NCBI GenBank assembly: GCA_964187785.1
Contig: OZ076409.1
Location: 7,566,001 to 7,630,000 of the forward strand
Length of the DNA stretch: 64,000 nt
Origin: Amphiscolops sp. MND2022
Lineage: Eukaryota
Direction of reading: 5' to 3'
Shown here: positions 15,198 to 45,719 of the stretch, in pieces
How the letters are laid out: each line of letters begins with the position of its first letter
Position numbering within the stretch: the first letter of the stretch is position 1
Notes under the pieces: model-generated
Database searches by the model: none
Seen by the model: the letters and a program-made list of their open reading frames with translations, nothing else
Told to the model about the DNA's origin: nothing
Translations under genes and position numbers: made by a program

Positions 15198-15203
15198 GGT
15201 TTC

Positions 15204-15425
15204 TCAAAGTCGGCGCTTGTAGACCTCGTGCCTCATGAACTCTTTGCACCTGTTTAATATAAGTTGGGCAGTCAAGAGAATCAGCTTCGTGGCTTCCGCT
15301 GCAATTGGTACACCTGGCAGGCTGATTACCGCTGCAGTTGTCAATAGAGTGCTCGCCGGAACAATGTTTGCATGACACTTTCGAATGGCAATTGGAACTG
15401 ACGTGTCCGAACTTCTGACATCGGT
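15204..15425 (-). pseudogene. LINE ORF1 C-terminal part with CCHC knuckles
   Basis: RCQKFGHVSSNC, CKHCSGEHSIDNC, CTNCSGSHEADSLDC. Confidence 0.9.
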
Positions 15426-16415
15426 CATTACAGTTCATCTGCAAGCCTTTTCTGAGCGTTTTGCGGAAATGAGGACACGAAATCTCGGAAACCGGGACAC
15501 GTGCACTGAATTCATTCCCCTTTGATGTCGACTGCCTTAGCTTCCTTTGAAGTTGAAATCTTACTTTCCGCATTTTTGTGTCTTGGCAAGTTAATGGGGC
15601 CAATTAATTGCCACTTATGCCAGGCTTCAATAGGGCCAATTATGTAGAAAGCAAATAGTGCAACGTGTCTCAGATTCCAGAGTTTTATTCAGTAGAGTAA
15701 TTCGTACACCTACATTCCGGAACAATTATAAAGTGTTTCCGCATTTTATCTCTTGAAATCAGATGAAAATTGCTAGAAAAGATAATGTTCGGAAACAAAC
15801 TTCTGTTAAATGAAGCTTCATGTTTTGACCCACAATTGGAACCAAAAAATCTCCAAGTTTCACACCAGTTATTTCATTAAAATTTTCTTTTTTTTTTCAA
15901 TTACAATTGGTAGAAAAGTAAGCTTTTTTATTAGGATGGTTTTTTCCATTAAATCCCCCGCAAACCCTTCCCCCCACAGTATGCGCAGAAATTTTTTATC
16001 CCCACCAATATCAGCGATGAAGTCGAGCTATAAAATACTGTTATTTGATTGATTGTTACTATTAATTCAATGATAATTTTTCTCGACCGCCTAACTGAAG
16101 TGGAATAGGAAGGTGGGGGGAATTAACAGAAAAGATGCGTAAGCATTTTTTCTAACTCTTTTCTAATATAATAAGACTGTAGATTTCGGTATCAAGTTCG
16201 GTTGGAAACAAAGGTGTCAATTCTTTATTCAATAGAGGCTATAATGCTCAGGAAGATCTCAAAAGTAAGCGTTGGTTGGAAAAGAACAATAATTAATTAT
16301 TCAAACTACCAAACAGTATCAAACAACGGCTAGATTTTTTGCATTTTTTCAAGGCTATTTGGAATACATTCAATGGTAAAAATATAGAAAAAACAGTCTC
16401 TCATTTCTAAATAAT

Positions 16416-16488
16416 TGCCGTTAGCGGGATCTGAACCCACGATCTCACGATCGGAAAGCTAGCGCGCATCCTATTTGGCCAACGGGTC
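16416..16488 (-). pseudogene. tRNA-like sequence (tRNA pseudogene or SINE head)
   Basis: A-box-like TGGCCAAATAGG and B-box-like GGTTCAGATCCC at tRNA spacing; imperfect stems. Confidence 0.55.
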
Positions 16489-16898
16489 TTCTTTTTGAAC
16501 GATATCTATTTGCTAATAAACTAAATGTTTTCGCTGCGTCAAATAGAGCAATTTATTCGCTCGATTATGCGCTTTAATGCGGATTCTCAACAATACGGGC
16601 TCGTTATGTGATTTTAAGCAGTCACTCATGCTGCCTTGAATAATTATCACGTTGATAGAATACTATTTTTGATAGGTCACGACAAACAATTACGTAACTA
16701 CGAGATTTACGTTATTCTGAAAGTACTCTATTCCGAAGTTCAACTCTACTAAGTAATTGAATTATGACGATTCAACCCACAATTGGAAGCAAAATATCTT
16801 CACTTGCATTCTATGTGTCATTTTGATGACGGCCCAGTGGTTAATGATCAGGTTCATCAAACAAAAGTTTATATATGTGTTCTATGCAACGGCATAAC

Positions 16899-17150
16899 GG
16901 GGATGGTGGCGCAGTTGATAAGGCGAGTAGTGAAGCTTGAGGCGTAGTCTGTCACCGGATCGAACCCCATCAAAACACTCTGCAGGGTGATTCTATACAG
17001 ACAACACTGTCTTCCACCAGATCTATCCGGTAAAAGACTTTAGAGGGCCTAATTGAAGATCCACTGCGCTACTGAATCACTTTTTTCTGTGTGGCAGTTC
17101 ATCCTGTCTGAGAATGTCTGAGAAGACTCGCTATATTAAATCAAATTCAA
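16899..17150 (+). mobile_element. Putative tRNA-derived SINE
   Basis: GGGGATGGTGGCGCAGTTGATAAGGCG (A box) ... GGATCGAACCCC (B box), ~170-nt body, A-rich TCAAA tail. Confidence 0.6.
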
Positions 17151-17633
17151 AAACGCGAATGTTTCAATTGATTTTGTTATTTATGAATTGAAGCATCAGA
17201 ACTCGACCCACGATTGGAACCAAAAATTTTAATTTTTTTTACCAAAACCTCAATAACAGTTGCGTTTTAATTTTTCATTTTTAAAACTTGTACATTTTGT
17301 AATTTTTTGAAGTACGTTTTCTTCTAACTCTAATTATCAACGGGCTTCCGATGTAACGTTTGGTGTGAAGTTTATTGAAACATTTGTGGCACTCAAATGT
17401 GATTTAGGATTACAAAGTAATTGACTTCTTCAAATCAAACATAATTTTTTGAATAGCGTTGCAAGTGTTCCTAAAACGGATTTGAAATGGTTTAAAATCA
17501 AATTCAAGCTTTCGTCAGCATTCTAATCTCAAAACGGTTCCAGTTGAAACTGAGTAACACCATTTTAAACAATCACGTACAATAAAACCAATGCCACTAA
17601 AATCTAGAAGTTTGTGAATGAAAGTTCGTTTCT

Positions 17634-20480
17634 TCAATTTTCCTCTTCCGATTCATCTGCAAGATTGTCACTGTTTTCTTTTCGTGGTTCTTGACTACCG
17701 CTGAAGCGACCGCTGGTGTTTCCAGAGCTGCTTCCTGACTGTGATTCACTAAACTCAGAGCGAGCTATCGGATCCTCGTAGTCGAACATTAACTGTTGGA
17801 AGGGATGGATTGTTTTACTTGCTCGGAGGACAACATAACGTTGATTGTTGTCGGCAAACACAATGACATCAGTGGACTTCATATTGGCTTCCAAAACTGA
17901 GTGATGGGCAAGGCGACCCATACATCTACTATCAGGGTGGACAGGACACGTTTCCGCGGAGGCATTGATTATCCTTCGGCCAGGTCCTTTGACTTCCAGA
18001 CAAAACTCCCGTTTAACACCTTCAATGGCGGAAACTTCGTCCATTGATGTCTTGAGGAAAACCTGCCCATGGTAATCAACGACGACTTCATTTTTCTGGA
18101 AAACTCGGGTGGCAACGATTCCCCTTCCAAACTTGCTAAAAAAACCTGCGTGACTCCGGGCCATTTTTGAGATCGACATCTCTCCATAAGCAAAGTTTGA
18201 TCTTCAAACTCCATATTGCTTGCCAATCCTTTGTAATAAATCTTCTGAATTGCTATGTTCGTTTCTACTTTTGGGGTAATAAACATTGGGAGCACAAGTA
18301 TATAAACTTTTCTCAGGTCTTGGTTGCCGTCATTCTGCGTCGTCCATTTCTGTCGCTGGAAATAGTTCTTCAGTCTCATTTCCAACGAAGCAAGGTCAGT
18401 TTTCCCATTCATATGCTTGAAAAGACATGGGCACAAGCTGATTGGCGGGCATATCTCTGTCGATCCTGGTGCCTTCTCACCGCCGACTGCACGATCTGGT
18501 AGTCCAAGGCAATGTCCAGAGTCGCCCAAATTGCTCTAGTCTGGACCTTCAACTTAGGGAGTATTGCTTCAGTGTCGTTTGCGATGGGCAACACAACATG
18601 AAGGTGCCGTTCCAATTCCCTAAGCGGGCTATCACAGTGTTTCAGTAATTGTTTGAAATGATACAAACATTGAATAGTGTCTATATGCATTCTGAATTAA
18701 TGATACCAACAATGTACGTGTCACTTAGATCGACCCCCAATTGGTACCAAAAACTAGCTCTACATTATAAATTGTCCCAGTTTCCACAATTTTTCAGTAT
18801 AATTTGACTTGCTCAAAGAATGCAAAGCGGAAAACAAGACCATATTTTTAAACACATGGCGTGGAAACCAGATACAAATCTTAATACCTTGCCAACATTC
18901 ACTCAAAGGGGTATACACATTATTGCGCGTTACCATGAATGTCCTAGTTTCCACGGTTTTAAGTTTGAATTGACTTACTCAAAGAATGCAATGCGGAAAA
19001 CAAGACCATATCCTTAAACACATGGCGTGGAAACCAAATACAAATCTTAATACATTGCGAACTTTCACTCTAAAGGGTATACACATTATTGCGCGTTACC
19101 ATGAATGTCCTAGTTTCCACGGTTTTAAGTTTGAATTGACCTACTCAAAGAATGCAATGCGGAAAACAAGACCATATCTTTAAACACATGGCGTGGAAAC
19201 CAAATACAAATCTTAATACATTGCGAACTTTCACTCTAAAGTGTATACACATGATTGTGCGTTACCATAAATGTCCTAGTTTGCACGGTTTTTGAGTATA
19301 AAATGGCTCGCTTTTAAAAGTCTTCGAGGAAAAAAAGACCATATCTTTGAACACATGGCGTAAAAACCGAATACAAATCCTAACTAATTGTTTTATTCAA
19401 GGGCGTGTGATGATGATTTGTTTTTACATACCGACTCCACATATTGGTCAACAACGTGGCTAGGTCGGAAGTTGGATTTCCCAGCTGAGTTCACAAAAAA
19501 CAATTCGGTGTAGAGGATCCGATTGTCTGTGTCACTCAGCAGTCTTTCGAAAGGAGTTCCCTCACCGTGGTCCAGAAACTCGTTTCGAACACTCACGAAG
19601 TAGTCCACAAAGCCTTCCAATAACCATGGTGGATAATGTAGCACGTTTTTCTGGCGCACCTCTCAGCTACATCTATCTCAAGCCCGAAAGAGGCATTTTT
19701 GTTGTCGCATTCTTTCATCTGAACTGCTGCCTGCGCCACGGCGTGGACAGTCACATTGCTGACCTCCCGATCCAGAAAACCCAAGAAAATTAGAACGTAG
19801 GCCAGTAGACTTCGAAAGAACTCTATTTGGACCTTTTTCGTAGCCAGAATGCTCTTTCTGCAACGCGATACATTCTCTGTTTTTGTCCATTTAATGAAGG
19901 ACTCCACTGTATCCGTTTTGTAATCAGGCTTCTTCTTCTTGGCGGGAACAGTCTAAAAAAGAGAGAGTTTTCAAAAAGTGTCCTAATTATCTTTGAAACT
20001 GATAACGGAATTAAAAAGTACATTGGCTTCTAGGAAACGTAACCCATGTTTCGAACGCAAAATTTGAACAATATCTATTCAGAAGTTTTACTACACTTAC
20101 CATATCAACTGGTGGGGGCATTGGACGTTTGCTTACTACATTATCGGAGCTTGCATGTCCATTCGACTGTTTTGGAGGAATTATAATCTCAGCTAGTAAT
20201 TCGCTCTGAATGTATAAAAACTCGTTTATGACCTCTTCAGCTTCAGTCGGGAGATGTTCCGTTATTATTCCATCCTCATTGAAGCTGAATTCATGTGGCT
20301 CTTGGAGGCGGAACGGAGTGCTGTTGAGTGGCCCGCCGGATGTTTGGCTAAACATCACGGGCGATAAAGGGCGTGAACAAACCAGAAGGAGTTTGCATTT
20401 GGGTTAACGTCAGAGGCGTGGACATGTCCGCGGAAGCCGGTGTTGGAAGTGGGGGCATCGGCAAATGCAGCGAGGTTTTG
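17634..20480 (-). pseudogene. Multi-exon gene: tyrosine-recombinase-like domain followed by a PR-Set7/SETD8-like SET domain (frameshifted)
   Basis: SET: FGRGIVAT...VVDYHG...MGRLAHHS...ANMK...LRASKTIHPFQQLMFDY (17634-18179). YR-like: LLAYVLIFLGFLDREVSNVTV...LFFVNSAGK...FMLCCPSQTTLKQY. GT-AG intron ~19954-20100; second intron filled with 166-bp repeats. Confidence 0.8.
18780..19390 (+). repeat. 166-bp tandem repeat array (~3.6 units) in an intron of the SET gene
   Basis: TTTCCACGGTTTTAAGTTTGAATTGAC...AATGCGGAAAACAAGACC...; period 166 (repeated ORFs at 18820 and 18986). Confidence 0.95.
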
Positions 20481-20871
20481 TTTTGCTCCATTTAAGAAAG
20501 TTCGATTTTCTATTTTGACGGTCTGATTTTCAGAGACGATTTCAAGATATTGATTGTAGATTTCGAGTATTTGTTGATATGAATTACGATAATATCTGAT
20601 ATTTGGTAACTTGTAGTGCCATATCCGGCTGTGCAACCAAAAACCTCAGTCTTAAATGAGGCATGTAAAAAGCGTTATTACGGAAGGAGGCTAGTGTCTT
20701 CATTTTGCAATTATTCTTATTAGTGCAACTGCTCGGTAATTAGGTGACGATTAGCTGTAATTAATTTGGATTGCAACCAGTCTCGTTATCGTCTTCTTCA
20801 ACGCTCATCCCATCAACATTCACCACATAAGTTGTCTACACAATCTATTAGTTTCGAGCTTTAAGTTAAAA

Positions 20872-22260
20872 ATGCTTCTCCAAACATTCTATGAAAATGA
20901 AGTTGTGCAAATTTTGGATCCTGCGACATCAATTTGGGAATCAGCGAAAATACTTTCCTTTGTGAGCGATTGGTGTGTAAGAATTAAATGGGTCGATTGG
21001 TCTTACAATAAAAACGAAGATATCACTGTTCCCGAAGTATACAGACCTGAAAAAAAACTGGAACATTAGAAAATCACACAATCTTGTACACCAAGAAACT
21101 GTGAGCAACAAAAGACGATCAACACCACTTAGCTACAACGCTCGTCGACTGGTCAGAAACGATCAAATTTACTTTTGGCAACCAGAATATAATTGTGAAG
21201 ATAGCGAAAGATGCCAAGAGGACCGTTGCTGCGGGTCAGTTGTGATGGGTTGGGTAAAAATTAATGATCCTTTCTGTCAACAATGTTTGACAACCGACGT
21301 GGAGGACAATGATGAGTATGTTTCGTATCGCCAACTAAGAAATAAACCTTGTGTAAGAGACACTGAACCAGAAACTGATGAAACTGAACAAGATGAAGAA
21401 TCAGGATCTGACGTACATCGCCCATTCGTCAAAAAGCAAGCCCGTGTGACAAGCGCCGCACAACCGATGCCACAAGTCGACATTCTTTCCTTGCTTCCCA
21501 ATGTTGACGATGACGTTGAATTAACATATGCACCCTGTGAAAATGATATCATAAAGGTAATGTTTTCTTGCTTTTTTGCTTACAAACTTTGCCTTTGAAC
21601 TTTGATAACCCTGGATTGGCACCAATTTTTTCAAAGTATTTTTCCCACCTAATATTTGTTTAATCATTTTGTTTTCAGGTGGGATCTATTGCATCTTACG
21701 CAAATGATGATTTTAAAATCAAGAAGGTTTACTATGATGTTCAGAAGAGAAAAGCATGTGCATTCATGCAGAGCAAAAGTGCCCTGACAATGAAGTGCGC
21801 AGACCAACAATTCGTGTTGTGACAACAACATCTTCTAAAGGCAATGTAATGGATTTTAATTCGCTTCTGGAGCCCATGGACCAAGCCTATGCTTTGTTTT
21901 CTGCAAAAAAACGACTGGGCGGGATTCTCAAGAAAGAAGCATTCCTTAACCGCAACATTAGGTCCCTGTACCCCACTGACAAAAAAACTCTGTGGCTTCG
22001 AAACTGGCAATTTCAAAGAGGCCGTTAAGTATAGTGTTGCAAACCAAGAGGGACATAATTGGTGCAACGGTACATGGGATACTGTACTTGAAAGAAACTA
22101 GGATATGATCCCATGTCACGCAAGCGATGGAAAAGATGTTCTTATAAAGACAATGAGGTTCACTGAACATCGAGAATTTGGCGTGTTCACGATTCGTGTC
22201 CAGTTTTTGACGAGCCAAGGCCACTACAAAAACAGCCAATATAGAGATCTGAGTCGGAAT
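20872..22260 (+). pseudogene. Intron-containing gene with an N-terminal Tudor/Royal-family-like domain, decayed
   Basis: EVVQILDPATSIWESAKILSFVSDWCVRIKWVDWSYNKNEDITV fits a Tudor/Agenet/MBT beta-barrel pattern; acidic linker; GT-AG intron ~21557-21678. Confidence 0.55.
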
Positions 22261-22554
22261 GTACCTGTCTCAGATCCATGAAATACTCTAAAAAACTCCT
22301 AAATTTTAAAAAACTTTTTCAATTCGTGTTTGATCATATTTTGTTTGTTCAACAATTCATCTTTCATCATTATTAGTAATTATTACAATATGAGCTCCAT
22401 GACCTTGTATTCTTGAAAATTCTTGAGCAAAGTCTTAGACTATCGAATTACTTTTTTCTGAAAGCATATGATTAACAAGGCACTTGTCACGTATAGATCA
22501 ACCCCTGATTGGTACCAAAAATGATACAATCTCAGCTATTTCCGGGATTTTACT

Positions 22555-23000
22555 TGTCGTGTTTTCCATTTTTTTTCAGCATCTTTGATTTGCGCCAGAA
22601 AGCAATGCGGAAAACAAGTACACATCTTAAAAAACGTGGCATGAAATCCAAACACAAATCGTAATGCATTGCTCATATCTATTCGTCCCGGTTTCCACGG
22701 ATTTTCAGTACAATTTGACTTGCTCAAAGAATCCACTGCGGAAAACAAGACCAAATCTTTAAACATATGGCGTGGAAACCAAATACAAATCTTAAAACAT
22801 TGCGATTTTTCACTCAAAGGGGTATGTATGTATGCAGACTCCGGATCGCGCGTTACCATAAATGTCCTGGTTTCCACGGTATTTAAGTGAAAATTGATTT
22901 GCTCAAAGAAAGCAATGCGGAAAACAAGGACACATCTTTAAACACAAGGTGTGGAAACCAAGCACAAGTACTAATACGTTGCTCAATTTTATTCGAAGGG
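22555..23000 (+). repeat. Degenerate array of the 166-bp repeat (~3 units), intergenic
   Basis: Same TTTCCACGG / AATGCGGAAAACAAG / GGCGTGGAAACCAAATACAAATC blocks. Confidence 0.9.
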
Positions 23001-23096
23001 GTGTAGTCATTGTTTTCAGGAAATATTCAAACAATTTTTGTTTTTCTTTTTTCAATACTTTTTGAGTATTTTCAATCAGATAACACTTTACAAAGA

Positions 23097-26000
23097 TGAA
23101 ACAAACAGTCCTAAGAAGTGAAAACTTCTAATTACGAGTGAGAAGACTTAATGGAGGACTCTTGTGCATCTGATTGTGATTATTGACAAAATGGCTTTGG
23201 GTGATATGGACTCAAATTATCGAATTATTTGAACCGTTCTTCATCAGTTTAATGAAGAGACTCAAAACCGGACTCATTTTACTTGTGGGTTTGTGTATCT
23301 AATTGCATTTCATTTTTTTCTATGGAAAGGTTGTCAGTCTGAAAAATGTTCTACAATCAATACAATTTCACTTTGCAATAAACCTAAAAACCAGCTTTAG
23401 AAATGACTCCACTGTCAATTTGGGAAAGGAATTCTATCGAAGTGGAAAATGGGAAACTCTTCGCTAACTGTCGACTTTTTGACAGTTTTATATCCGGAAA
23501 AAAAATACCGAATAAGTTTCGGAAGTTCGAGACACTTGTTGGGGAAATGTTGACGGGGACAAATTTAAATCCAAAAGAATTCTTTCGGAGAATTGCTGTT
23601 AAAGGCCAGAAAACCCCCCCTGTATTTGTAGCAGCAAAATTGGCAAAACTACTTGTACTGCGTGGATTTAAAGACTTCCCTTGGAGCTCAGCCAGAAGAG
23701 AGTTTGTCAGTTTGTTTTTCAATATTGATGTCATACCAAATCACAATCCTTAAATGAAAGACACCCTTGCGACACCTGCAGATGTGACTCCTGGAGATGC
23801 GGCTTCTGAAGGTCAAGTCAGTGACAATTCTCTCTCAAAAGAAAGAAAGCTAGAAAAATCAGACGCCAAAAAAGTCAAACATGAACAAATTGATCCAATT
23901 AGAACAGATCCGATGTCAGAAGTTGGGTTCAACAGTTTCATGAAAAAAATCAAAAGCTCTGCAAATAAGAATAAAGATCAACGATTCACAAAAAAGAGGA
24001 CCCAAACTTAGTCAAAAAAATTGTAGAAGATCTCTTCGACAAAAGAAGATCGACTGATTAGTTCAGTCACCATTTATCTCTTGTCACGAAAACGGGTAAC
24101 ACGGAAGATGTTATAAAAGTTATTCGAACAAGACTTTAAAATGTTGGACTCGGATACAATTTAGTCCCATGCATTCGATTGGTCAAGAGGTCATCATCCG
24201 AAATTCAGTCCTACTTTACAGCAATGTGTGAGCCAGGAAGAACTTTCTCTGGTTTTCGCTGCAACCTCATAAAATGCGTGGAGACGGTGTCATACTTCTT
24301 ATTTGGAACGAAAGAACTCAATGGCCAACGAGTTGATATTTGGGGAGATGGTTGTGAAATTGGAGGTGTCGAAACAACACGAATTGCATTCCGGATACTT
24401 TCTGACAAAATAAAGTGTCAATCATCAGATGCAGTATTCTGTTTTGCTGCATACAGGGGTAAAGATGGAAGGTTCGCAATGGAACAAAACCATGAACCAA
24501 CTATAGCTGGAGTTCAAGAGTCTGGTTGGCTTTTTATGAAGACCCTGGAACTGTCAAAACGCGGAGTTGTTTTGACATACAGTGGCGATTCGCCGTTTTT
24601 AAAGAGATTGGTGCTCCGTATCACAAATGAATCAGCTAGCCCATCGAAAATGCCACTCTATGTAATGTAACAGAACTTGACTACACAACAACAAAATGTC
24701 ATCATGAAACTGGTTTACGATCTGATGTTATTATACCCTTCAGAAAGGATGTTCCAAAATCTTCCTTGGTCTTCTACGAAAATATACAATCAGTTTGTCC
24801 TGATGCCACGCATATGACAACCCGTTGTGTTGAAAATGACCTCCAAAGAATTGCACAGAAAATTATCAGAGAAAAGTATCCTAATCATGGTGTAGCAAAT
24901 CGCCAGCTTGAAGAAAACTTGACAAGAAGAGATGCGAAGAGACCATACTTTCAGTTCAACATATCTCATAGAAGTGGTTCGTGTATCGGTACTGTAGGTG
25001 CAGTATCCCTCGCAGGTGGTAGTGCTCTAGCGGTCATTGCTGATAAAGAGGAACTTGCAGGTGCGAAAGACGGTAAAATTAGTGATCTTTACCATGGTGT
25101 TTGGGTCCCGAAGATATCATTGTTGGCAGTGAAAAAAACGCAAATGTCCCTTGCGTTAATATCATAAGAAACTGGCTTCCTAAACTTTTCAATAAAGATA
25201 ACCTCAAGCAAAAAGGGTCCAATGACAAATTCATATCTGCTTTTGATGCTTGCGAACTCCTGCGATCGAGTTTAAATCAATGTGTTTTATGTCTGCGAGC
25301 AGAAGAATTCAACAGTGAAACGTTCAAAAAATGGGCTGAAGTTTATTACCAAGTCAATATCTTGATAATCGGGCATGCCGGTTTGACACCCTATAAATTG
25401 AAAATGCTGATGTTTCCTCAACTTGTTGAAAGTGGATACATAAAAAGACCATTTGATCACTTGTGTGAAGGTCTTGAAAAATCGAACCACCAAGCTAATC
25501 GTGGCTTCCAGACGAAAACAATGCGCGGAGGGGGTAAGATTTATCGCAAGGGACCACTATTCCTCGAGTCGTCTTTTTCTTTCTTGAAATTTTTAAGATT
25601 CGCAGTTGAAGTTGAAGACAAAGGGTCGGACGCTGAACCAACTTCTAAGATTATCATGGAACCTGAACAAAACGCAACAACAGAGGTCTACTTTGATGAC
25701 CATAATGTGACTGGAAACAAAGAACTATCAGACAGTTTCGAAAAGTACTTGAAACAGCGTAATGAGTATACTTCATAGTGCAACAAAAGTGATGGGCATT
25801 GACGTTCCGGGACCTGAGTACCTTGATATTTGCCGCAAAGAACCACCGGTAACAACTATCGCCATTGAATGTCAAGAAAATCCTTTGAGTGGATTAAGAT
25901 TTTGTCTGCTTTGTCGCTTGGGTACTTGGAAAAAACATACTCTAACATATGACATGGTGAAACAATTGATTATCAATATGGGAGGAACTGTTCTAGAAAA

Positions 26001-26445
26001 TGAACAAGCTGACGTGTTGATGAGCACCCATTCACAGCTCCCCAATTGTTTTGTTCTTGTCAAGGACGAAAAAGACCTAATCTTAGGTACCGGTTCCACA
26101 GAGGAAATTAACGATATGAAGAAACCAAGGAAAAGAGGGTCATCAGCAACACAGGAGGGTGGAAATGAACCATCACAATATTCCAAAATAGCGAAAGAGT
26201 TCGCAGCTGGGGGCTTCAAATTCTTGAACATCGATTTTGTAGCTGAAGTTGACGAGAAAAAAATGCTGATTGACCCGGAGCCATACTTTCTTCAGCCCGG
26301 ATCCAAACTTGTTGAAAATCGTGTCAACGACAAAAGACCTTTGTTTTTGGATCAATGCAGTGGAAAAACACTGGGTGAAAGTGTATCTGCGATTGTCGCT
26401 CTCAAGAGATACCGTGAGGGCACTTTTAAACAACTTTCGTTTTGA
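23097..26445 (+). pseudogene. DDE transposase (CMC superfamily; Chapaev/Transib/RAG1-like motifs) with a C-terminal BRCT-like domain, frameshifted
   Basis: VDIWGDG (D1 ~24347), LTYSGDSPFL (D2 ~24587), CPDATHMTTRCVE, LTPYKLKML...CEGLEKSNH (E ~25476). BRCT-like: PLSGLRFCLL...VKQLIINMGGTV...FLNIDFVAE...IDPEPYFL. 5' boundary approximate. Confidence 0.8.
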
Positions 26446-26649
26446 TTTACTGTTCTCTTCTAATTCATATGTTACCCGAACTTGAAACTATTCAATAAAT
26501 TCTTCAAAAAATAAGTATTTTCATTAGGTTTAATGTGATGCTCCTACGAAACTAAGGAAATGTTTTACATGTCATAGATTGGTATCAAAGAGCACACAAT
26601 ATTGGGCTCCGTTTCGGCGAACTTTCGTTTGTCTTCGTTTCCACAAATT

Positions 26650-26850
26650 GATTGCGCGTTACCACAAATGAACTAGTTTCCACGGTTTTGAGTTTGAATT
26701 GACTTACTCAAAGAATGCAATGCGGAAAACAAGATCATATCATTAAACACGTGGCGTGGAAACCAAATACAAATCCTAATACGTTGCGAACTTTCACTCA
26801 AAAGGGTATACACATGATTGTGCGTTACCATAAATGTCCTGGTTTCAATT
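26650..26850 (+). repeat. ~1.2 units of the 166-bp repeat between the convergent transposase and JmjC genes
   Basis: Sequence identity to the 18780-19390 units. Confidence 0.9.
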
Positions 26851-27101
26851 GCGTTTTTACCTGGCGGAAATTCAATGATGAAGTATACTCCTGATTTTTC
26901 TTCTATTCTTCTTTTTTGGAAATTATTGCATTAGACGTCCAAATGTTTCAAAGCATGTTTTGAACAATTAAGGTTTTTTTTCAATTCGTTTTCAAATTAA
27001 ACTTCTTGCGCTCGTCACTGAATAAAACAGGTTGTCAGGTATTTTGCAGTTTTTTGTCACTTATTTGTATGACACTGAAAATCTAAATCTGAATCTACAG
27101 T

Positions 27102-30100
27102 TTAATCTATATCTAAAATACCTAGTTCAAGGGGGATTGAGCGTATTCCCGTAATGACAGCAACAAGAGGACAGCGTTTCGGGTGCAAAGATGGATCTAC
27201 CATCTTTGCCGGCAAGACAGTTCTTCCCCTGCCTTTAACATGGGTAATCATCATTGCGGGTCTTGACTCGAGTTCTAGTAAATCCGTTGTCGTCATTACT
27301 TCCTCGTACGCTTTCGTGTAGGGGTCAACAGCGATGGGCACAGTCTCTGGAACAGTAAGAGCCTTACTGAGGTCAGTATTCTTTCGGGATGCTCGCTCAA
27401 ATAATTGCGGCTGCTGCTTGGTGGCTCACGCAGTGTCACTGAAGCTCTTTTTTTTTGCCCAATACGATGTGAAGTCTTTCAGGACTGAAATCGGGTAGCA
27501 CCTGTAAAACGTAAAATTCAACGTAAACTTAAATCGGGTAGCACCTGTGAAACGTAAAAATCAACGTAAACTTTCAACCTGGAGAGCAAACTTTCAATTG
27601 AAAAATACGAAATTTTTATGGTAAAGTTCTTGATTATTATAAACTTATCGACGTAGAAGCACAAAATTCCACTCAGTTGTGTTTTACTTGCGTGTATATC
27701 AGTCAAACTTGAATGTAGAGAATGACCAATATGTGTTTTGAAGTCTTGAAAAAAGCAAGATTTATTCATAAACATAAGTTTTCGAACTAGAAAATGACCT
27801 TCGATTGGAAACAAATAGGAAATGATTGAAAATGGAAAATGGAAAAATGGAAAATTGAAAATTTGTTACCAAACAAAGACTGAAGGCTTAACAATCTTAC
27901 TTCACGGGCGGTGTGTTCATTGTATATTGATTGCACTGTGCTGTACATCGACACCAGGCGTCGACAGAGTCGAGGGAACAGCTTTTTGGCAATACGGTAC
28001 ATCAGAAGTACCAGCATCTCTGGAACATCAGGAAATTTGTCATCGGATCTTCTCGGGAACTCGACGATGATTGAGTGTCTTATCATGGGCAGGTGCCCAA
28101 ACGCCAGGAAGTTTGTTCCCAACGAAATGGCATTGCCTTTCTTAAGAACGAAGTGGAGGAAATTTGCGAGCATGACTAGAACATCTCCAGCTGTGACATG
28201 CAACCGCAAACATCCCTCTTCCAGCTGGTCGATGTTCCCGAAGAATGTTGGCCTGAAAAAACATCGAAGTTGCTTTTCTAATTTTTTGACATTAATAGAA
28301 GAAAACTAAAAGAAAAGTTTAATTATTTGAAAAGAGACGTTAAATGCTTGCTTGTTGTTTTCCATGACCAAAAAATAATAGTCAAAAAGTATAGTTGTTT
28401 GTTTTTGAAAATAGAACAGTATTCTTGAAGAAAATAAAGTTGGTGTGCTAGTTAAGTTTTGTTACTTACGTAGTGTCGTTCTCAGCATTCGACCATCTTT
28501 CAAAAATGCTGAGATTTTTTTTCGACGGTTTCACTAAAAAGAAAATCTTCTCTCCAGTTAGAACTGTGTAAAACACAGACGTCGAAGAATAACCCTGATG
28601 CCACGTCGTGTGCGCAGAATCTTGAGTGACCAGGACATAATAGGAAGTAGAACAAGAATAAGGCTCGGTTCTCGACTTCCGATTTCCCTGTCGGCCAAGT
28701 GGTTGATGGAGTTGTCAGCCACCATCTCGGGTACTGTTTATATGGCCTTGGGGAGTGTCCTGACATCGATGACGTTTAAAGAGTAATATTGACTGCCTGG
28801 ATGACAGTTGGCCAGCTCCACGAAAAACTCTTCATACGTCATTTCTCGTGTCTGTAAAAACATCTATTAAATGATGATGCTAGGCAATGTTCTAATTCAT
28901 GTTATCAACAGTGTACTTGTCACAGGTAGATCGGCCCTGGATTGGTACCAAAACGAACTCGACATAACTGTCCCAGTTTCCACGGATTTTCAGTATAATT
29001 TGACTTGCTCAAAGAACACAATGCGGAAAACAAGACCATATCTTTAAACACATGGCGTGGAAACCAAATACAAATCTTAATACATTACGAACTTTCACTC
29101 TAAAGGGTATACACATTATTGCGCGTTACCATGAATGTCCTAGTTTCCACGGTTTTAAGTTTGAATTGACTTACTCAAAGAATGCAATGCGGGAAACAAG
29201 ACCAATTCTTTAACACATGGCGTGGAAATAAATACAAATCCTAATACATTGCAGAACCTCACTTGAAGGGGTATACCCATGGTTTGTGTTTTGGAAAAAC
29301 TAAATTTGTTTTTTCACTAAATGCTAAACATGGTTCAAACGAGTAGGAAGTGTTTTTTACCTCTCCGATTCTGGCTGACTTGACTTCAATTGGAGCATCA
29401 GGTTCAGCAAAGTTGACCGGTCGCAGAAGCCGTTTGATCTCCGCGACGAAGCCTTTTTTCGCGTAGAATTTTTGGACTTTCAGTCCTCTGCAGTGCTTGG
29501 CTCCGTTTCTCCAAATCAAGGGGACACCATGTCGAAGAAGATGACCAAGGTGTTCGGTTTGATTGTCATGGGGACCCTGCCACTCAGCGTAGGAAAATCG
29601 ACAATCCAGAGGCACGTTTTCGCAAAACGCGAAGTGCTCTTGGGTGCCAAATGGGGCCGCTGGAGTCCCAGAATTGAATGTCAAATCAAGTGGCATCGGT
29701 GGTTGGGCAATTTGACATTTGACTGATCTCGCGATGTGGTTCCTCAGGCTGTACCCGTACCCGAATGAGGTCCCACACGAAACGCACAAGTGACGGCTTC
29801 TTCTTTTTCCTTTCGCAGCTTCTGTAATTTCAAAGACATTTTTTCAAATGAAATTCGGAAATCTTTTCTTTCATGAATTTCATTTTTAGTATGACCCATG
29901 ATTGGAACCAAAAATCTTCCAAAGATTTCATGAATGCTTTCATGGTATGACCCATGATTGGAACTGAAATCCTTTCCAAAAAATTGTGTTTTTTAGACCT
30001 TCCCTTTCACATCAGAAAAACATTTTCCTTCTTTTTTCTATTGCATACGATAATCGGTTCAAGACCGTAAAATATTTCAAAACATGAACAAACAAAATCC

Positions 30101-31345
30101 TGGAAACAATCTGAACACTAACGGTATTGGTTTATTCTAACTTTTTCTCCAGCAGCAATCTTTTCTTGTTGTTTCGTGCAGTATTTGGTTCTTCTTTGAT
30201 AGCGCTCTTTACTTTTTTTTTGTGAAAATCTGACCACATTTCTCGCACGTCAAATTCTGGGCAACTTGTTCCTGCTTGCTGACACTTTTGCATCCCGGAA
30301 GATGACGGGTTAAGTGCCATTTCTTCCAGCATCGTAGTCGCAATTCGGACACGGGAAACCTAAAGCCTTTTGAATTATACGAGATGAAGAACTCAAATAA
30401 AAAACCATACCTATACATACAAAATACATACCAAAATCAGATTGTTTTCCACGAGTTACAAATTTGATAGGTTTCATTTAGATTGCTCAAAACTTTGAAA
30501 AATGGTATACATGATATACTGATCCACGTGATGTTTGATTTGTCAAACTTTTTATCAATCCAGTTTCAATTACAAAAAAGGGAGATTGTCGCTTGTCAAT
30601 TGTCAAAACGAGAACAAGAACGAGTGAATGGAAGTCTTACGTTTTTTAGGTGGCGGAGTTGTATCTCGAAATTCGTCACAGAGTTGTCTTTTTCGGTTTT
30701 CTGGCAAACCAGGGCAAGTGCGGGCATGAACAGAAAGGGCTTCTCGAGTGGGGGCATAATGGTCGCAAGCACCGATTGTGCAGAGATGACGTGAATAATA
30801 AAACAAAGATGAAAATATATACAATAAATGAAGACTCATACACAGGGGTGTTCGAGCCATATTTGCGTGAAAATTATTGGCAATTAAGGGATTCAAATAG
30901 ACGATTGGAAGTACCGAATTAATGGAAAAAGTTGAAAGACGCCCTCAAATTTTACCATAATTACCATGGCATATTTCAATTCTGCAAACGAAGATAAATG
31001 AATCTGTTCTAAAGTATAAAAAACTCCTTTTTTGAACACCCCTGTTCATACAGCCTCAAAATTTCAATACAAATAAAACCAGAACAAAGTAAAGAAACGT
31101 TCATCAAAACTTCAAACATGTTTCACATTCGCAGTTGAATTTACCCGTTTCAGCAGTTTGATAGTTTTTGACCTATTTCACTGATAGTCAAGAAAAAGTA
31201 ACTCAGAAATTAACAACTTACCAAGGGACAGTTCTGATGATGAGTCAGATGAGTCCATGCGGGATCTAAAGATCTGAGAAGTGCTGGGTCCGCTGGGTCC
31301 GCCAGCTTGCTCATAAGTACTTGCAGGTGTTTTCTTCGATTTCGG
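27102..31345 (-). pseudogene. Multi-exon zinc-finger + JmjC (KDM2/KDM7-like) gene, the only complete copy
   Basis: Exons ~31345-31222, ~30800-30641 (C2HC finger, PPPKKRK NLS), ~30359-30135 (fingers), ~29840-29361 (CVSC...H finger, GVPLIWRN), 28851-28470 (YVLVTQDSAHTTWHQGYSSTSVFYTVLTGEKIFFLVKP), ~28252-27901 (VTAGDVLVMLANFLHFV...GTNFL), ~27502-27102. Confidence 0.85.
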
Positions 31346-34300
31346 CTGTAACAATTTGAAAATGTGAATTGCAAAAGAGTAAATATCAAGAAATTTAAAT
31401 TATTTCAAATAACAAAGTCAAAATTGTTTACGAGAAAGTTTGGATCTTTCCGGTTCATCCCCCCATCGATTTAAGTCCCCCAGTAGTGATTAATCGAAAG
31501 TTTTATGAATTAACTTTTAAAAAAGTATTCCGGTTCATCCCCCCATCGATTTAATTCCCCAGTATTTATTAAATAAAAGTTCTATAAATTAACTTTTTAA
31601 AAAGTATAAAAGTATATCATTAAACATATATTTTTTGGAAGAGAATCTGCGTAAAACAATTTGAAAGTTATCAGGACACTGTTCGAAAAAACTGCCTTGC
31701 ACTTTGAACCAGAATCTGCTTCTAAATTGTAAAATCAATTACAGTACGGGGGCTTTTGTAACGACCCGAAGGGGCAGTTGATTTTAAACTGATAGTTTTT
31801 TGATAAACTCCAAAAACAGTTTCTGGGAATTTGGGATTAAAATTGAAACAAGTAGAAGTCAAGAGAATTGTTGGATTGTGAAAGATTTTGGGCATAAAAG
31901 TGTCTAATTTTTTTCTGTGAACTCAAAATCTTTCTAGTTTGTTTTTTGAAGTTTTCATTCTCATATTATTTGATCTGATCTTATTGGGGATTCCATTTGG
32001 CCCAAGCTTGGAACCAATCTTTAAGAAATCCATAACCAAAATCAATTTAAAAACAATTTTTCAACCAATAATTTATTTCCGAAAACGAATATATCAACTT
32101 TCCATTATGATTGGCTCCGGGTTATATCCGGTGATTAGCTGAGTTTATTTTCGGCTGCTGGCTGTTGGGTGTCTGCTAAACTTTGAGTTGTTAATGAGAG
32201 ATTTTAAGATTTGGCTTGTTAATGAGATTGAGAGAGTCAGTTAACAGTACAGTCTGAACGGTAGGAAAACAAGTTCGACAATGAAAACAGCCGGTCGGTC
32301 AGTTGATGTGCGTGATACGCGCGAATGATACGAGCCGCTGATTAGCCAATAGGAATCACCCAAATGGAACAGTCATGTTTGATACGAGTTTCTGTTACGC
32401 GCCGCTGATTATCAAGGAAAATACTCACGATTGTAACAGTTATGATTTTGATACGAGCCGCTGATACCCGACGCTGGTAAGCCACGGTTGAAACTGTGAA
32501 CTTTCAAGCGATGACCGATAAGGCAATTATAATCATCAGGGGTGCGCATTATTGTATTTATATTTATTGATACGACTTCACCAAAAAATAATAGTCAAAA
32601 AGTATAGTTGTTTGTTTTTGAAAATAGAACAGTATTCTTGAAGAAAATAAAGTTGGTGTGCTAGTTAAGTTTTGTTACTTACGTAGTGTCGTTCTCAGCA
32701 TTTGACCATCTTTCAAAAATGCTGAGATTTTTTTTCGACGGTTTCACTAAAAAGAAAATCTTCTCTCCAGTTAGAACTGTGTAAAACACAGACGTCGAAG
32801 AATAATCCTGATGCCACGTCGTGTGCGCAGAATCTTGAGTGACCAGGACATAATAGGAAGTAGAACAAGAATAAGGCTCGGTTCTCGACTTACGATTTCC
32901 CTGTCGGCCAAGTGGTTGATGGAGTTGTCAGCCACCATCTCGGGTACTGTGTATATGGCCTTGGGGAGTGTCCTGACATCGATGACGTTTAAAGGGTAAT
33001 ATTGACTGCCTGGATGACAGTTGGCCAGCTCCACGAAAAACTCTTCATACGTCATTTCTCGTGTCTGTAAAAACATCTATTAAATGATGATGCTAGGCAA
33101 TGTTCTAATTCATGTTATCAACAGTGTACTTGTCACAGGTAGATCGGCCCTGGATTGGTACCAAAACGAACTCGACATAACTGTCCCAGTTTCCACGGAT
33201 TTTCAGTATAATTTGACTTGCTCAAAGAACACAATGCGGAAAACAAGACCATATCTTTAAACACATGGCGTGGAAACCAAATACAAATCTTAATACATTA
33301 CGAACTTTCACTCTAAAGGGTATACACATTATTGCGCGTTACCATGAATGTCCTAGTTTCCACGGTTTTAAGTTTGAATTGACTTACTCAAAGAATGCAA
33401 TGCGGGAAACAAGACCATATCTTTAAACACATGGCCTGGAAACCAAATACAAATCTTAATACATTACGAACTTTCACTCTAAAGGGTATACACATTATTG
33501 CGCGTTACCATGAATGTCCTAGTTTCCACGGTTTTAAGTTTGAATTGACTTACTCAAAGAATGCAATGCGGGAAACAAGACCAATTCTTTAAACACATGG
33601 CGTGGAAATAAATACAAATCCTAATACATTGCAGAACCTCACTTGAAGGGGTATACCCATGGTTTGTGTTTTGGAAAAACTAAATTTGTTTTTTCACTAA
33701 ATGCTAAACATGGTTCAAACGAGTAGGAAGTGTTTTTTACCTCTCCGATTCTGGCTGACTTGACTTCAATTGGAGCATCAGGTTCAGCAAAGTTGACCGG
33801 TCGCAGAAGCCGTTTGATCTCCGCGACGAAGCCTTTTTTCGCGTAGAATTTTTGGACTTTCAGTCCTCTGCAGTGCTTGGCTCCGTTTCTCCAAATCAAG
33901 GGGACACCATGTCGAAGAAGATGACCAAGGTGTTCGGTTTGATTGTCATGGGGACCCTGCCACTCAGCGTAGGAAAATCGACAATCCAGAGGCACGTTTC
34001 CGCAAAACGCGAAGTGCTCTTGGGTGCCAAATGGGGCCGCTGGAGTCCCAGAATTGAATGTCAAATCAAGTGGCATCGGTGGTTGGGCAATTTGACATTT
34101 GACTCATCTCGCGATGTGGTTCCTCAGGCTGTACCCGTACCCGAATGAGGTCCCACACGAAACGCACAAGTGACGGCTTCTTCTTTTTCCTCTCGCAGCT
34201 TCTGTAATTTCAAAGACATTTTTTTCAAATGAATTTCGGAAATCTTTTCTTTCATGAATTTCTTTTTTAGTATGACCCATGATTGGAACCAAAAATCTTC

Positions 34301-37300
34301 CAAAGATTTCATGAATGCTTTCATGGTATGACCCATGATTGGAACTGAAATCCTTTCCAAAAAATTGTGTTTTTTAGACCTTCCCTTTCACATCAGAAAA
34401 ACATTTTCCTTCTTTTTTCTATTGCATACGATAATCGGTTCAAGACCGTGAAATATTTCAAAACATGAACAAACAAAGTCCTGGAAACAATCTGAACACT
34501 AACGGTATTGGTACATTCTAACTTTTTCTCCAGCAGCAATCTTTTCTTGTTGTTTCGTGCAGTATTTGGTTCTTCTTTGATAGCGCTCTTTACTTTTTTT
34601 TGTGAAAATCTGACCACATTTCTCGCACGTCAAATTCTGGGCAACTTGTTCCTGCTTGCTGACACTTTTGCATCCCGGAAGATGACGGGTTAAGTGCCAT
34701 TTCTTCCAGCAACGTAGTCGCAATTCGGACACGGGAAACCTAAAGCCTTTTGAATTATACGAGATGAAGAACTCAAATAAAAAACCATACCTATACATAC
34801 AAAATACATACCAAAATCAGATTGTTTTCCACGAGTTACAAATTTGATAGGTTTCATTTAGATTGCTCAAAACTTTGAAAAATGGTATACATGATATACT
34901 GATCCACGTGATGTTTGATTTGTCAAACTTTTTATCAATCCAGTTTCAATTACAAAAAAAGGGAGATTGTCGCTTGTTTAATTGTCAAAACGAGAACAAG
35001 AACGAGTGAATGGAAGTCTTACGTTTTTTAGGTGGCGGAGTTGTATCTCGAAATTCGTCACAGAGTTGTCTTTTTCGGTTTTCTGGCAAACCAGGGCAAG
35101 TGCGGGCATGAACAGAAAGGGCTTCTCGAGTGGGGGCATAATGGTCGCAAGCACCGATTGTGCAGAGATGACGTGAATGACAAAACAAAGATGAAAATAT
35201 ATACAATAAATGAAGACTCATACACAGGGGTGTTCGAGCCATATTTGCGTGAAAATTATTGGCAATTAAGGGATTCAAATAGAGGATTGGAAGTACCGAA
35301 TTAATGGAAAAAGTTGAAAGACGCCCTCAAATTTTACCATAATTACCATGGCATATTTCAATTCTGCAAACGAAGATAAATGAATCTGTTCTAAAGTATA
35401 AAAAACTCCTTTTTTGAACACCCCTGTTCATACAGCCTCAAAATTTCAATACAAATAAAACCAGAACAAAGTAAAGAAACGTTCATCAAAACTTCAAACA
35501 TGTTTCACATTCGCAGTTGAATTTACCCGTTTCAGCAGTTTGATAGTTTTTGACCTATTTCACTGATAGTCAAGAAAAAGTAACTCAGAAATTAACAACT
35601 TACCAAGGGACAGTTCTGATGATGAGTCAGATGAGTCCATGCGGGATCTAAAGATCTGAGAAGTGCTGGGTCCGCTGGGTCCGGCAGCTTGCTCATAAGT
35701 ACTTGCAGGTGTTTTCTTCGATTTCGGCTGTAACAATTTGAAAATGTGAATTGCAAAAGAGTAAATATCAAGAAATTTAAATTAGTTCAAATAACAAAGT
35801 CAAAATTGTTTACGAGAAAGTTTGGATCTTTCCGGTTCATCCCCCCATCGATTTAAGTCCCCTAGTAGTGATTAATCAAAAGTTTTATGAATTAACTTTT
35901 AAAAAAGTATTCCGGTTCATCCCCCCATCGATTTAATTCCCCAGTATTTATTAAATAAAAGTTCTATAAATTAACTTTTTAAAAAGTATAAAAGTATATC
36001 ATTAAACATATATTTTTTGGAAGAGAATCTGCGTAAAACAATTTGAAAGTTATCAGGACACTGTTCGAAAAAACTGCCTTGCACTTTGAACCAGAATCTG
36101 CTTCTAAATTGTAAAATCAATTACAGTACGGGGGCTTTTGTAACGACCCGAAGGGGCAGTTGATTTTAAACTGATAGTTTTTTGATAAACTCCAAAAACA
36201 GTTTCTGGGAATTTGGGATTAAAATTGAAACAAGTAGAAGTCAAGAGAATTGTTGGATTGTGAAAGATTTTGGGCATAAAAGTGTCTAATTTTTTTCTGT
36301 GAACTCAAAATCTTTCTAGTTTGTTTTTTGAAGTTTTCATTCTCATATTATTTGATCTGATCTTATTGGGGATTCCATTTGGCCCAAGCTTGGAACCAAT
36401 CTTTAAGAAATCCATAACCAAAATCAATTTAAAAACAATTTTTCAACCAATAATTTATTTCCGAAAACGAATATATCAACTTTCCATTATGATTGGCTCC
36501 GGGTTATATCCGTTGATTAGCTGAGTTTATTATCGGCTGCTGGCTGTTGGGTGTCTGCTAAACTTTGAGTTGTTAATGAGAGATTTTAAGATTTGGCTTG
36601 TTAATGAGATTGAGAGAGTCAGTTAACAGTACAGTCTGAACGGTAGGAAAACAAGTTCGACAATGAAAACAGCCGGTCGGTCAGTTGATGTGCGTGATAC
36701 GCGCGAATGATACGAGCCGCTGATTAGCCAATAGGAATCACCCAAATGGAACAGTCATGTTTGATACGAGTTTCTGTTACGCGCCGCTGATTATCAAGGA
36801 AAATACTCACGATTGTAACAGTTATGATTTTGATACGAGCCGCTGATACCCGACGCTGGTAAGCCACGGTTGAAACTGTGAACTTTCAAGCGATGACCGA
36901 TAAGGCAATTATAATCATCAGGGGTGCGCATTATTGTATTTATGTTTATTGATACGACTTCACCAAAAAATAATAGTCAAAAAGTATAGTTGTTTGTTTT
37001 TGAAAATAGAACAGTATTCTTGAAGAAAATAAAGTTGGTGTGCTAGTTAAGTTTTGTTACTTACGTAGTGTCGTTCTCAGCATTCGACCATCTTTCAAAA
37101 ATGCTGAGATTTTTTTTCGACGGTTTCACTAAAAAGAAAATCTTCTCTCCAGTTAGAACTGTGTAAAACACAGACGTCGAAGAATAATCCTGATGCCACG
37201 TCGTGTGCGCAGAATCGTGAGTGACCAGGACATAATAGGAAGTAGAACAAGAATAAGGCTCGGTTCTCGACTTACGATTTCCCTGTCGGCCAAGTGGTTG

Positions 37301-40300: not shown

Positions 40301-41167
40301 TGAACCAGAATCTGCTTCTAAATTGTAAAATCAATTACAGTACGGGGGCTTTTATAACGACCCGAAGGGGCAGTTGATTTTAAACTGATAGGTTTTTGAT
40401 AAACTCCAAAAACAGTTTCTGGGAATTTGGGATTAAAATTGAAACAAGTAGAAGTCAAGAGAATTGTTGGATTGTGAAAGATTTTGGGCATAAAAGTGTC
40501 TAATTTTTTTCTGTGAACTCAAAATCTTTCTAGTTTGTTTTTTGAAGTTTTCATTCTCATATTATTTGATCTGATCTTATTGGGGATTCCATTTGGCCCA
40601 AGCTTGGAACCAATCTTTAAGAAATCCATAACCAAAATCAATTTAAAAACAATTTTTCAACCAATAATTTATTTCCGAAAACGAATATATCAACTTTCCA
40701 TTATGATTGGCTCCGGGTTATATCCGTTGATTAGCTGAGGGTATTATCGGCTGCTGGCTGTTGGGTGTCTGCTAAACTTTGAGTTGTTAATGAGAGATTT
40801 TAAGATTTGGCTTGTTAATGAGATTGAGAGAGTCAGTTAACAGTACAGTCTGAACGGTAGGAAAACAAGTTCGACAATGAGAACAGCCGGTCGGTCAGTT
40901 GATGTTCGTGATACGCGCGAATGATACGAGCCGCTGATTAGCCAATAGGAATCACCCAAATGGAACAGTCATGTTTGATACGAGTTTCTGTTACGCGCCG
41001 CTGATTATCAAGGAAAATAGTCACCATTGTAACAGTTATGATTTTGATACGAGCCGCTGATACCCGACGCTGGTAAGCCACGGTTGAAACTGTGAACTTT
41101 CAAGCGATGACCGATAAGGCAATAATAATCATCAGGGGTGCGCATTATTGTATTTATATTTATTGAT
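28367..41167. repeat. Tandem triplication of a ~4.2-4.4 kb unit holding the promoter and 5' exons of the ZF-JmjC gene
   Basis: Units start at 28367, 32580 and 36962; ORF offsets 4213 and 4382; near-identical; unit 2 has one extra 166-bp repeat. Confidence 0.97.
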
Positions 41168-44127: not shown

Positions 44128-44770
44128 ATTTATTCCAGCTGGTATAAATGTATTTCACTATTGTATATCACTATATACAATCAGTATAAATTTTTTCCCC
44201 TATAGTAAAGTGTTGAAAGAAACGTTCCTTTTTCGTTTTTTCAAATTCATTTTCAAATTTCATTTTTTCAAATTCAAATGCAGTTGGTATAATTGTGGTA
44301 CCATAATATAGTAGTATAGTATAGTATAGATGAAAGGAAGAGAAGTCGACAGTTTTACGGAAAGGGAGACATTGATTGTAACTTGTTTGTGGTAATTGAC
44401 TTTGTATTTACTCTCTGGTTTATTAAATTTGATTTCAGCAAATTAAAATGTAAGTGGAAACAAATACGCTAAAATTTGCAGGCATCTGATTGGTTGTAAT
44501 GCACTTTGTGGAATACGAGACACGAACTTGTCGGCATCGTGTCGGCATTAGTCGGCATCTTTTTGGTCCCAGTTTCCGCATTTTGAAACCGGCTAACGTA
44601 TTAACCCATGCCCTCGGATTCCGAAAAACGCCGCTTTTCGTGGCGTGGATTAAGCAAAATCAGTGCTAAATTGCCAATTTTACACGTTTTAAGTCATGTC
44701 TGCGGAATCGGAGGACATACACGCACAGAAAAGTGTCTGTGGCGATTTAGCTTGCAGATGCACTGTAATG

Positions 44771-45290: not shown

Positions 45291-45719
45291 CAGGGTTATA
45301 AGAATTATTCGATACTTATAATAAAGCCAGTTAACGCGCTTTTAACATGCTTGTTTCGCAATTTAGCAAATTAACTAGCGTTTCGTCAATTTTTTGATTT
45401 TTAGGCTCCTTAAGGAAACTCCTTCGGTGTTCTTGGTATGAGACACAGGAAAATAAGAAATGTGCAGTATCATGGACAACTCTTCAATAGAGACAAATAT
45501 CGGTTTTGCTTTTTACTTCTGAATAATACTTCGCGTACTTCAAAAGCATTCATTAGAACACGTAGCGTTTTGACAGAAATTTTGCTAGGATATGGTGCTA
45601 GCATTTTCATGATGCTGTTTCTTACTTCAAGCCCTGAGTAATTTGAGTACTTAAGACCTTGCTTCATTTCTCGTTGCCATAAGTGCCTGCAATACTCATC
45701 CACCTCCTTTTTAAAAGTA

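Follow-up and report, generated by a model that had tools for sequence, protein, structure and literature searches.

A large transposon with 2-bp target-site duplications probably encodes a RAG1/Transib-type transposase that lacks the zinc site and is fused to a BRCT domain

A 64,000-nt stretch of Amphiscolops sp. MND2022 contig OZ076409.1 (positions 7,566,001 to 7,630,000; hereafter the window) contains a broken transposase gene within a 29,345-bp element, 15426..44770, whose ends are 22-bp CATTACAG repeats. We consider it probable that this gene encoded the transposase of a large transposon that makes 2-bp target-site duplications (TSDs), likely moves by cut-and-paste and represents its own lineage, with a RAG1/Transib-type core that lacks the zinc site and is fused to a BRCT domain. 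A first-pass annotation of the window had placed a transposase with Chapaev/Transib/RAG1-like motifs, EnSpm-like ends and a BRCT-like tail at 24179..26445.

Intact siblings join the catalytic core and the BRCT domain in one frame

Four overlapping frames between 24140 and 26445 carry the transposase motifs, and the gene starts ~780 bp upstream of 24179, with its first Met at 23403. Its parts are as follows:

23403..26445, plus strand: transposase gene, a 1017-codon frame in siblings; four frameshifts and four in-frame stops in the window copy
23412..23744, plus strand: N-terminal domain, weakly KilA-N/APSES/Bro-N-like, with a predicted DNA-binding fold
24047..25628, plus strand (start approximate): predicted RAG1-fold core, about residues 220-745, with dimerization-like helices, RNase H residues D320/D400/E695, and H473
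25873..26316, plus strand: one BRCT domain, which intact copies encode in the reading frame of the core

Since the window copy is interrupted by frameshifts and stops, the fusion of core and BRCT is visible only in siblings, where the KilA-N-like domain, the DDE core and the BRCT domain share one 1017-codon frame to which the window copy is 95% identical. This frame confirms the fusion suspected in the first pass and rules out a BRCT encoded by a separate gene. Subfamilies B, C and D have frames of 1037, 1175 and 1030 codons.

The catalytic motifs listed in the first pass (WGDG; SGD.PFL; D..H...R; TPY...EG.EKSN) are all where they had been reported. Mapped to the intact copy, D320 of WGDG lies at 24347, D400 of SGDSPFL at 24587, D470/H473 of DATH at 24802/24811, Y667 of TPYKLK at 25392, and E692/E695 of EGLEKSN at 25467/25476. 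We counted these residues in two alignments, A1 (40 rows) and A2 (30 rows), which share 14 rows and include some partial ones. D320 is kept in 20/21 (A1) and 21/21 (A2) rows, D400 in 34/34 and 26/26, H473 (of DxxH, corresponding to mouse H795) in 39/39 and 29/29, and E695 in 39/39 and 28/28; E692 is invariant wherever rows have residues.

The intact protein matches no Pfam family at E 1. A search with residues 200-760 retrieved 42 relatives, down to 36% identity and none informatively named, and a profile search retrieved 596 clusters at 50% identity, 203 of them at E 1e-30 and many of them fragments. The source names of 42 and 65 database matches were uninformative, and no relatives were found in viral contigs. 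A quick, unrooted tree restricted to family members (50 rows, with 8 short rows dropped) shows deep internal diversity. By rough estimates, the ratio of nonsynonymous to synonymous substitution rates (dN/dS) is 0.07 (A-B) and 0.22 (C-D) for the core, 0.21 (A-B) and 0.15 (C-D) for the BRCT domain, and 0.33-0.44 for the A-B linkers; values for the N-terminal part in C and D were disregarded because an intron falls in that stretch.

The predicted core has the RAG1 fold

A model built from the 40-row alignment (mean predicted local distance difference test score, pLDDT, 80) was compared with 48,161 representative chains. In the first fold search RAG1 scored highest (Z 16.4, root-mean-square deviation (rmsd) 7.0, 453 aligned), followed by the lancelet RAG1L BbRAG1L (15.1), HzTransib (10.7) and the P element (9.5). 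A second comparison, matching over residues 220-745, gave Z 17.9 for RAG1 (6xny; rmsd 4.0, 414 aligned) and Z 15.6 for HzTransib (rmsd 4.9, 405 aligned). Hermes matched the model only at a Foldseek E of 0.028, and the whole model had no viral fold match at E 0.001. Neighbors listed in a language-model atlas include two clusters without names, mostly of cnidarian proteins (0.94), and RAG1 clusters (0.93). Matches to a glucosidase, tubulin and a phycobilisome linker in sequence searches of solved structures were discarded as chance.

To our knowledge, solved structures exist within the group for RAG1 and Transib only, and there is none for EnSpm, Mirage or Chapaev; the fold therefore shows kinship with the group and not the side to which the core belongs. 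Assignment to the Transib/RAG1 side is supported by the motifs as read against the alignment in PMC7204232 supplementary file 7. That alignment has KWGFDG against IWGDG here, TPTLHK (TPxxHK) against TPYKLK, and ExxExxN; DATH is common to the family and RAG1L. The second glutamate is E962 in the numbering of that file, so E695 is likely the catalytic residue. Of the Chapaev/Transib/RAG1 side that the first pass had read from the motifs, the Transib/RAG1 placement finds backing in the fold, in the language-model neighbors and in the motif register relative to RAG1, RAG1L and Transib. Searches of the animal's own genome with PF12940 and PF06918 found nothing, with the controls silent too, and supplied no RAG1-like outgroup.

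The canonical zinc motifs are missing

RAGL and Transib elements have 5-bp TSDs, ends that start with CAC and four conserved zinc ligands (PMC7204232, PMC9435367), and all CMCT lineages share CxxC and H(3-4)H (PMC12730594). In the family described here, H(3-4)H before the last glutamate is present in 0/39 (A1) and 0/28 (A2) of the rows that cover the TPYKLK site. CxxC occurs in the interval from D400 to D470 in 0/40 (A1) and 1/30 (A2), an interval that some rows lack; two close rows have an unconserved CVLC beyond this stretch. The positions of the zinc site are occupied by M/L/I-P-L-Y and Y-K-L-K. As a control, EnSpm-type loci of the same genome have CxxC in 10/10 cases and H(3)H in all 8 that extend far enough. 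The element thus behaves like a CMCT/Transib transposon yet lacks two of the motifs stated to define CMCT (Kojima 2025, PMC12730594). Further CMCT features that it has are the D, D and E catalytic residues, the third conserved His, CA..TG termini and a TSD within 2-5 bp.

The C-terminal domain is a BRCT and the N-terminal domain may bind DNA

The BRCT-like domain that had been proposed at 25870-26305 is a genuine BRCT, which we map to 25873-26316. The tail of the model matches the MDC1 BRCT (Z 11.7, rmsd 2.2, 93 aligned) and ~35 further BRCT entries. Pfam BRCT_2 is detected in 10/40 relatives at E 0.05 (best 7.6e-7) and in 15/30 at E 1; the window piece alone gives E 0.031, below the Pfam cut-off, so that support comes from relatives and fold. 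The Gly-Gly motif G864/G865 is present in 35/35 and 34/35 rows. A BRCT region follows the core in 35/39 rows retrieved by the core-only search, the remaining four ending no more than 100 residues from E695, and in 28/28 rows of a wider set that had been chosen by means of a full-length profile.

Phosphopeptide-binding BRCTs typically form a tandem pair with a Ser/Thr-Gly pocket. The first pass had suggested that the domain could recruit DNA-repair factors. It might bring in damage-response proteins in a phospho-dependent way, like the BRCTs of MDC1, 53BP1 and BRCA1; these are its top fold matches (Z ~11-11.7), and excision makes breaks in need of repair. We find this role improbable: the Z values are close to those of many other BRCTs, the domain is single, and residue 840, before the beta-1 glycine, which we take from BRCA1 and MDC1 to be the phospho-pocket position, is Ser/Thr in just 1/35 and 1/28 rows. 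The closest profile is that of the PARP1 BRCT (E 0.004), whose entry 7scy is titled nucleosome-bound. Because the domain is single, lacks Ser/Thr at beta-1 and resembles the PARP1 profile, we favor a role in phospho-independent docking to DNA or protein over phosphopeptide recruitment. The most distant relatives (P0144, P0146, P0149, P0151, P0153, P0157, P0159 and P0162 of A2) have an extra basic helical tail past the BRCT, HMG-box-like by eye, with no Pfam match in the seven scanned.

The N-terminal domain (residues 5-120, pLDDT 91.6) matches Dachshund best (Z 4.7), with further matches to Ski, Mbp1 (4.2) and Bqt4. Its viral Foldseek list consists mostly of Bro-N/KilA-N proteins (best E 8e-4), and the language-model atlas gave no usable match for it. 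These weak, coherent matches make a KilA-N-like identity a lead only.

The element duplicates two base pairs of target DNA

The CATTA ends and 2-bp TSD of the first-pass annotation are real and lie at 15426 and 44770, far outside the 24179..26445 interval to which they had been attached. A scan of the window for CATTA...TAATG pairs returned this as the single best pair, with GT on either side:

15424..15425, plus strand: left target duplication GT, confirmed by empty sites
15426..44770, no strand: whole element, with both ends matching the ends of four complete siblings
15426..15447, plus strand: left terminal inverted repeat, 22 bp, starting CATTACAG
44749..44770, minus strand: right terminal inverted repeat, 22 bp
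44771..44772, plus strand: right target duplication GT, confirmed by empty sites

The two terminal repeats differ by 2 mismatches in the window copy and are perfect in intact siblings. Exact matches to a 21-nt end pattern number 329 genome-wide, against none for the reversed control. The terminus is CAT at both ends in subfamilies A, B and D and at the right end in C; left ends were not found for three copies of subfamily C and one of B.

The genome (1.07 Gb) was searched with one fragment, and 150 of 783 candidates were scored; all 150 matched, spread over several identity bands. For five siblings, each from a different contig, the alignment to the window begins at base 15426; four of them are complete at ~17.8 kb and the fifth runs into an assembly gap. 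No RNA source was listed for the intact locus. Three siblings differ from one another by 10-11 bases in 17,832, so the family moved recently. Element sizes in this genome range from 17 to 40 kb, two subfamily D elements reaching 40 kb, and the window copy owes its 29,345 bp (17,832 bp in intact siblings) to an internal triplication and a 2.2-kb duplication.

A 2-bp duplication flanks 18/20 paired ends, and a longer one none of the 20. Nine different dinucleotides occur among the 18 duplications, with TA in 3/18: GT in the window, TC, TG, TA and TC in four siblings, TA in one subfamily B pair (a second B pair, with CT/GA, has none), AG in a 1.1-kb derivative, and AA and CT in the two 40-kb elements; of ten further pairs, nine carry a 2-bp TSD. 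Moreover, the repeat that the element interrupts, which resembles a long interspersed nuclear element (LINE), has a single GT at the corresponding site in all 19 other copies fetched (40 matches were listed). These empty sites therefore fix the element ends and the length of the duplication. A 5-bp duplication with ends shifted inward was ruled out, as GT alone is duplicated relative to the empty sites.

The interrupted LINE-like repeat, with endonuclease and reverse transcriptase frames on the minus strand, spans window positions 13348-15425 and 44771-45341 and has at least 40 close copies. Short non-autonomous derivatives of 178, 225, 398 and ~1,100 bp (L146, L152, L145 and L070) keep both ends and 2-bp TSDs.

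The element carries candidate chromatin-modifying genes

Further genes and repeats lie within the element:

17655..20491, minus strand: spliced gene with a SET domain at its end, likely a histone lysine methyltransferase; broken in the window
18770..19413, plus strand: tandem copies of a ~166-bp internal repeat
20872..22275, plus strand: partner gene of no known family, ~430 aa in subfamily B; broken in the window
27105..29837, minus strand: spliced C2H2 and likely JmjC (histone demethylase-like) gene, with partial copies at ~32682-34217 and 37064-38432
28367..41171, plus strand: internal 4.2-4.4 kb triplication, ~99% identical, followed by a 2.2-kb duplication reaching 44132

The SET domain of the intact sibling is recognized by Pfam at E 1.5e-10. 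Single exons of the JmjC-like gene give weak matches (Cupin_8, E 0.0015; JmjC_2, E 0.25), and HxD and a distal H are present. The partner gene has no convincing Pfam or PDB match and no kelch match by sequence; in metagenome loci it stands head-to-head with the transposase in 4/17, and 9 of these 17 loci include 200 bp or more of sequence upstream of the match. The same loci gave no SET or JmjC match, a result that their short length leaves uninformative. Subfamilies A-D all have the SET, JmjC-like and partner genes, at ~50-70% protein identity, and C and D have them in a different order and orientation.

The ~166-bp repeat also occurs near 22597-23004, 26643-26846 and 28966-29280 and inside the duplications, between and within the element genes. 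Subfamily A has 9 copies of it and B has 7, four flank sets have none, and many diverged relatives of the repeat occur in C and D. These repeats are possible binding sites for proteins of the element.

In the same genome, EnSpm-type transposases with Transposase_21/DUF1258 have an in-frame SET domain N-terminal to the core (L134:79-2319, L141:355-3402 and L140:2067-3314). They make up another transposon lineage that includes a histone methyltransferase domain.

Relationship to known transposon groups

The family resembles Transib, RAG1L (ProtoRAG) and RAG1 in its predicted fold over ~410 residues, from the dimerization domain to the C-terminal domain, in the order of WGxDG, DATH, TPxxxK and ExxExxN, and in ends that start with CA and have ACAGTG at positions 5-10. 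It differs from them in a 2-bp instead of a 5-bp TSD, in T instead of C as the third terminal base, in the absence of ZnC2/ZnH2 ligands, in its KilA-N-like and BRCT domains, and in elements of 17-40 kb with SET, JmjC-like and partner genes; no RAG2-like gene was recognized by sequence. Just 35 Transib transposases were recovered in bioRxiv 2021.09.26.461848.

EnSpm/CACTA, Mirage, PlavakaB, Lanisha and Chapaev (CMCT) likewise have CA..TG ends and TSDs within 2-5 bp, and PlavakaB comes close with a CATCA start and 2-3 bp TSDs; unlike the present family, each of these groups reportedly has CxxC and H(3-4)H. Chapaev duplicates 3-4 bp, and the family here 2 bp. ESTA, a transposon of rust fungi recognized by the HHpred similarity of its transposase to RAG1, also has a 2-bp TSD, and some of its families carry an epigenetic enzyme (TET/JBP); as described, it differs in its TA-specific duplication, CAC ends and both zinc motifs, against nine dinucleotides, CATTA ends and neither motif here (PMC12730594). 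Transposons bearing SET or TET are already known: HarbingerS and oomycete MuDR (SET), fungal TET-bearing elements and VANDAL have their own epigenetic modifiers (PMC12730594 and work cited there). These differ in their transposases; in the present family SET, a likely JmjC and the partner are jointly kept despite rearrangement. The loss of the zinc motif, the N-terminal domain, the partner gene and the ESTA precedent had all escaped the first pass.

Among alternatives for the element as a whole, the one that fares best holds that the family is already catalogued, for example under EnSpm, Transib, Chapaev, Lanisha or unclassified DNA in Repbase, and that only the domain description is new. A family spread over 596 clusters may have been seen before, and its CA..TG ends and 2-bp TSD fall within the CMCT range (PMC12730594) and are similar to those of PlavakaB. 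We nevertheless think this unlikely, as the CxxC and H(3-4)H of all CMCT lineages are absent. Transposase_21, DUF1258, Plavaka and RAG1 Pfam families are listed neither for 40 members scanned at E 0.05 nor for 30 scanned at E 1, although EnSpm-type proteins of the same genome do match Transposase_21/DUF1258. Further, none of the 42 and 65 matches is informatively named, and no title or abstract in the searched literature describes the family; searches of the open literature, without most subscription journals and Repbase Reports, turned up no description of a BRCT-fused or zinc-less RAG1-like transposon.

We give still less credence to the idea that an animal-type EnSpm/Mirage/ESTA element gave rise to this one by loss of its zinc site, the match to RAG1 reflecting merely which structures are solved: its 2-bp TSD, the HHpred route by which ESTA itself was identified (PMC12730594), a D1-D2 spacing of 80 residues near that of same-genome EnSpm-type proteins, and the SET domains of those proteins would fit, but hhalign of the family profile against six of them gave a probability of 0.2% (with a shallow template), ExxExxN, DATH and TPxxxK follow RAG1L/Transib and not the EnSpm FES motif, TA makes up only 3/18 TSDs, and ESTA ends start with CAC (PMC12730594 supplement).

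Several observations count against a zinc-less RAG1/Transib-type transposase with an added BRCT. Identity to RAG1 is 10-12%, searches of solved structures with the protein or its alignments do not reach RAG1, and the shared-feature counts in the atlas (161-165) fall under the guide of 170 for same-family matches. The placement draws on fold and motifs. The register of the zinc site was set by eye from PMC7204232 file 7, and the near-invariant H689 and H699 could form an alternative metal site. Two of the 20 paired ends (CT/GA and TA/CA) show no duplication, dS between A and B is near saturation, and the KilA-N match is weak (Z under 5). On the model and the motifs, the family is nonetheless likely an unclassified lineage beside Transib/RAG1L. 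RAG1-like transposases with 2-bp TSDs are already known from fungi as ESTA (PMC12730594). A bolder proposal, which we put forward tentatively, is a superfamily-level branch of the RAG1 fold that lost the zinc site common to the CMCT/RAG group, adopted a 2-bp stagger, gained KilA-N-like and BRCT domains, depends on a dedicated partner protein that acts as a functional analogue of RAG2, and brings its own histone writer and eraser to keep its chromatin open.

Proposed mechanism and significance

Excision by RAG and Transib leaves hairpins on the flanks. By its predicted fold, the family's transposase would act as a dimer whose helical region contacts the two ends. Its RNase H site would excise the element, likely via such flank hairpins, and join it to the target across a 2-base stagger. 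Hydrophobic residues (M/L-P-L-Y and Y-K-L-K-x-x-x-hydrophobic) may stand in for the zinc site, and the KilA-N-like domain may add DNA binding, as their sequences suggest. The BRCT domain, acting independently of phosphopeptide recognition, would most likely dock to DNA, a nucleosome or a protein and so keep the cut site, or the gapped target, in place until the host repairs it. SET, JmjC-like and partner proteins would be likely accessory factors that keep element chromatin open.

Zinc binding and 5-bp duplications characterize those RAG1 relatives whose structures are solved, in contrast to this family with the same predicted fold. The family thereby allows tests of why the ZnC2/ZnH2 site is needed and of how the fold determines target-site spacing. 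As a transposase fusion conserved down to ~25% identity, the BRCT would link a cut-and-paste enzyme directly to DNA-end handling. The family also breaks the motif definition of CMCT and accounts for hundreds of unnamed protein clusters, and intact, near-identical copies are available for experiments.

Other features of the window

Two inverted-repeat pairs (11835-12434 and 52981-54063; 73-115 bp, ~81% identical) flank the LINE-like repeat together with the element and possibly mark an older outer element. A local inverted repeat of ~90 bp (78% identical) lies at 59929-60609. Regions resembling gag/pol of long terminal repeat (LTR) retrotransposons, identified by eye from the list of open reading frames, span 1787-5902 and 49068-52658.

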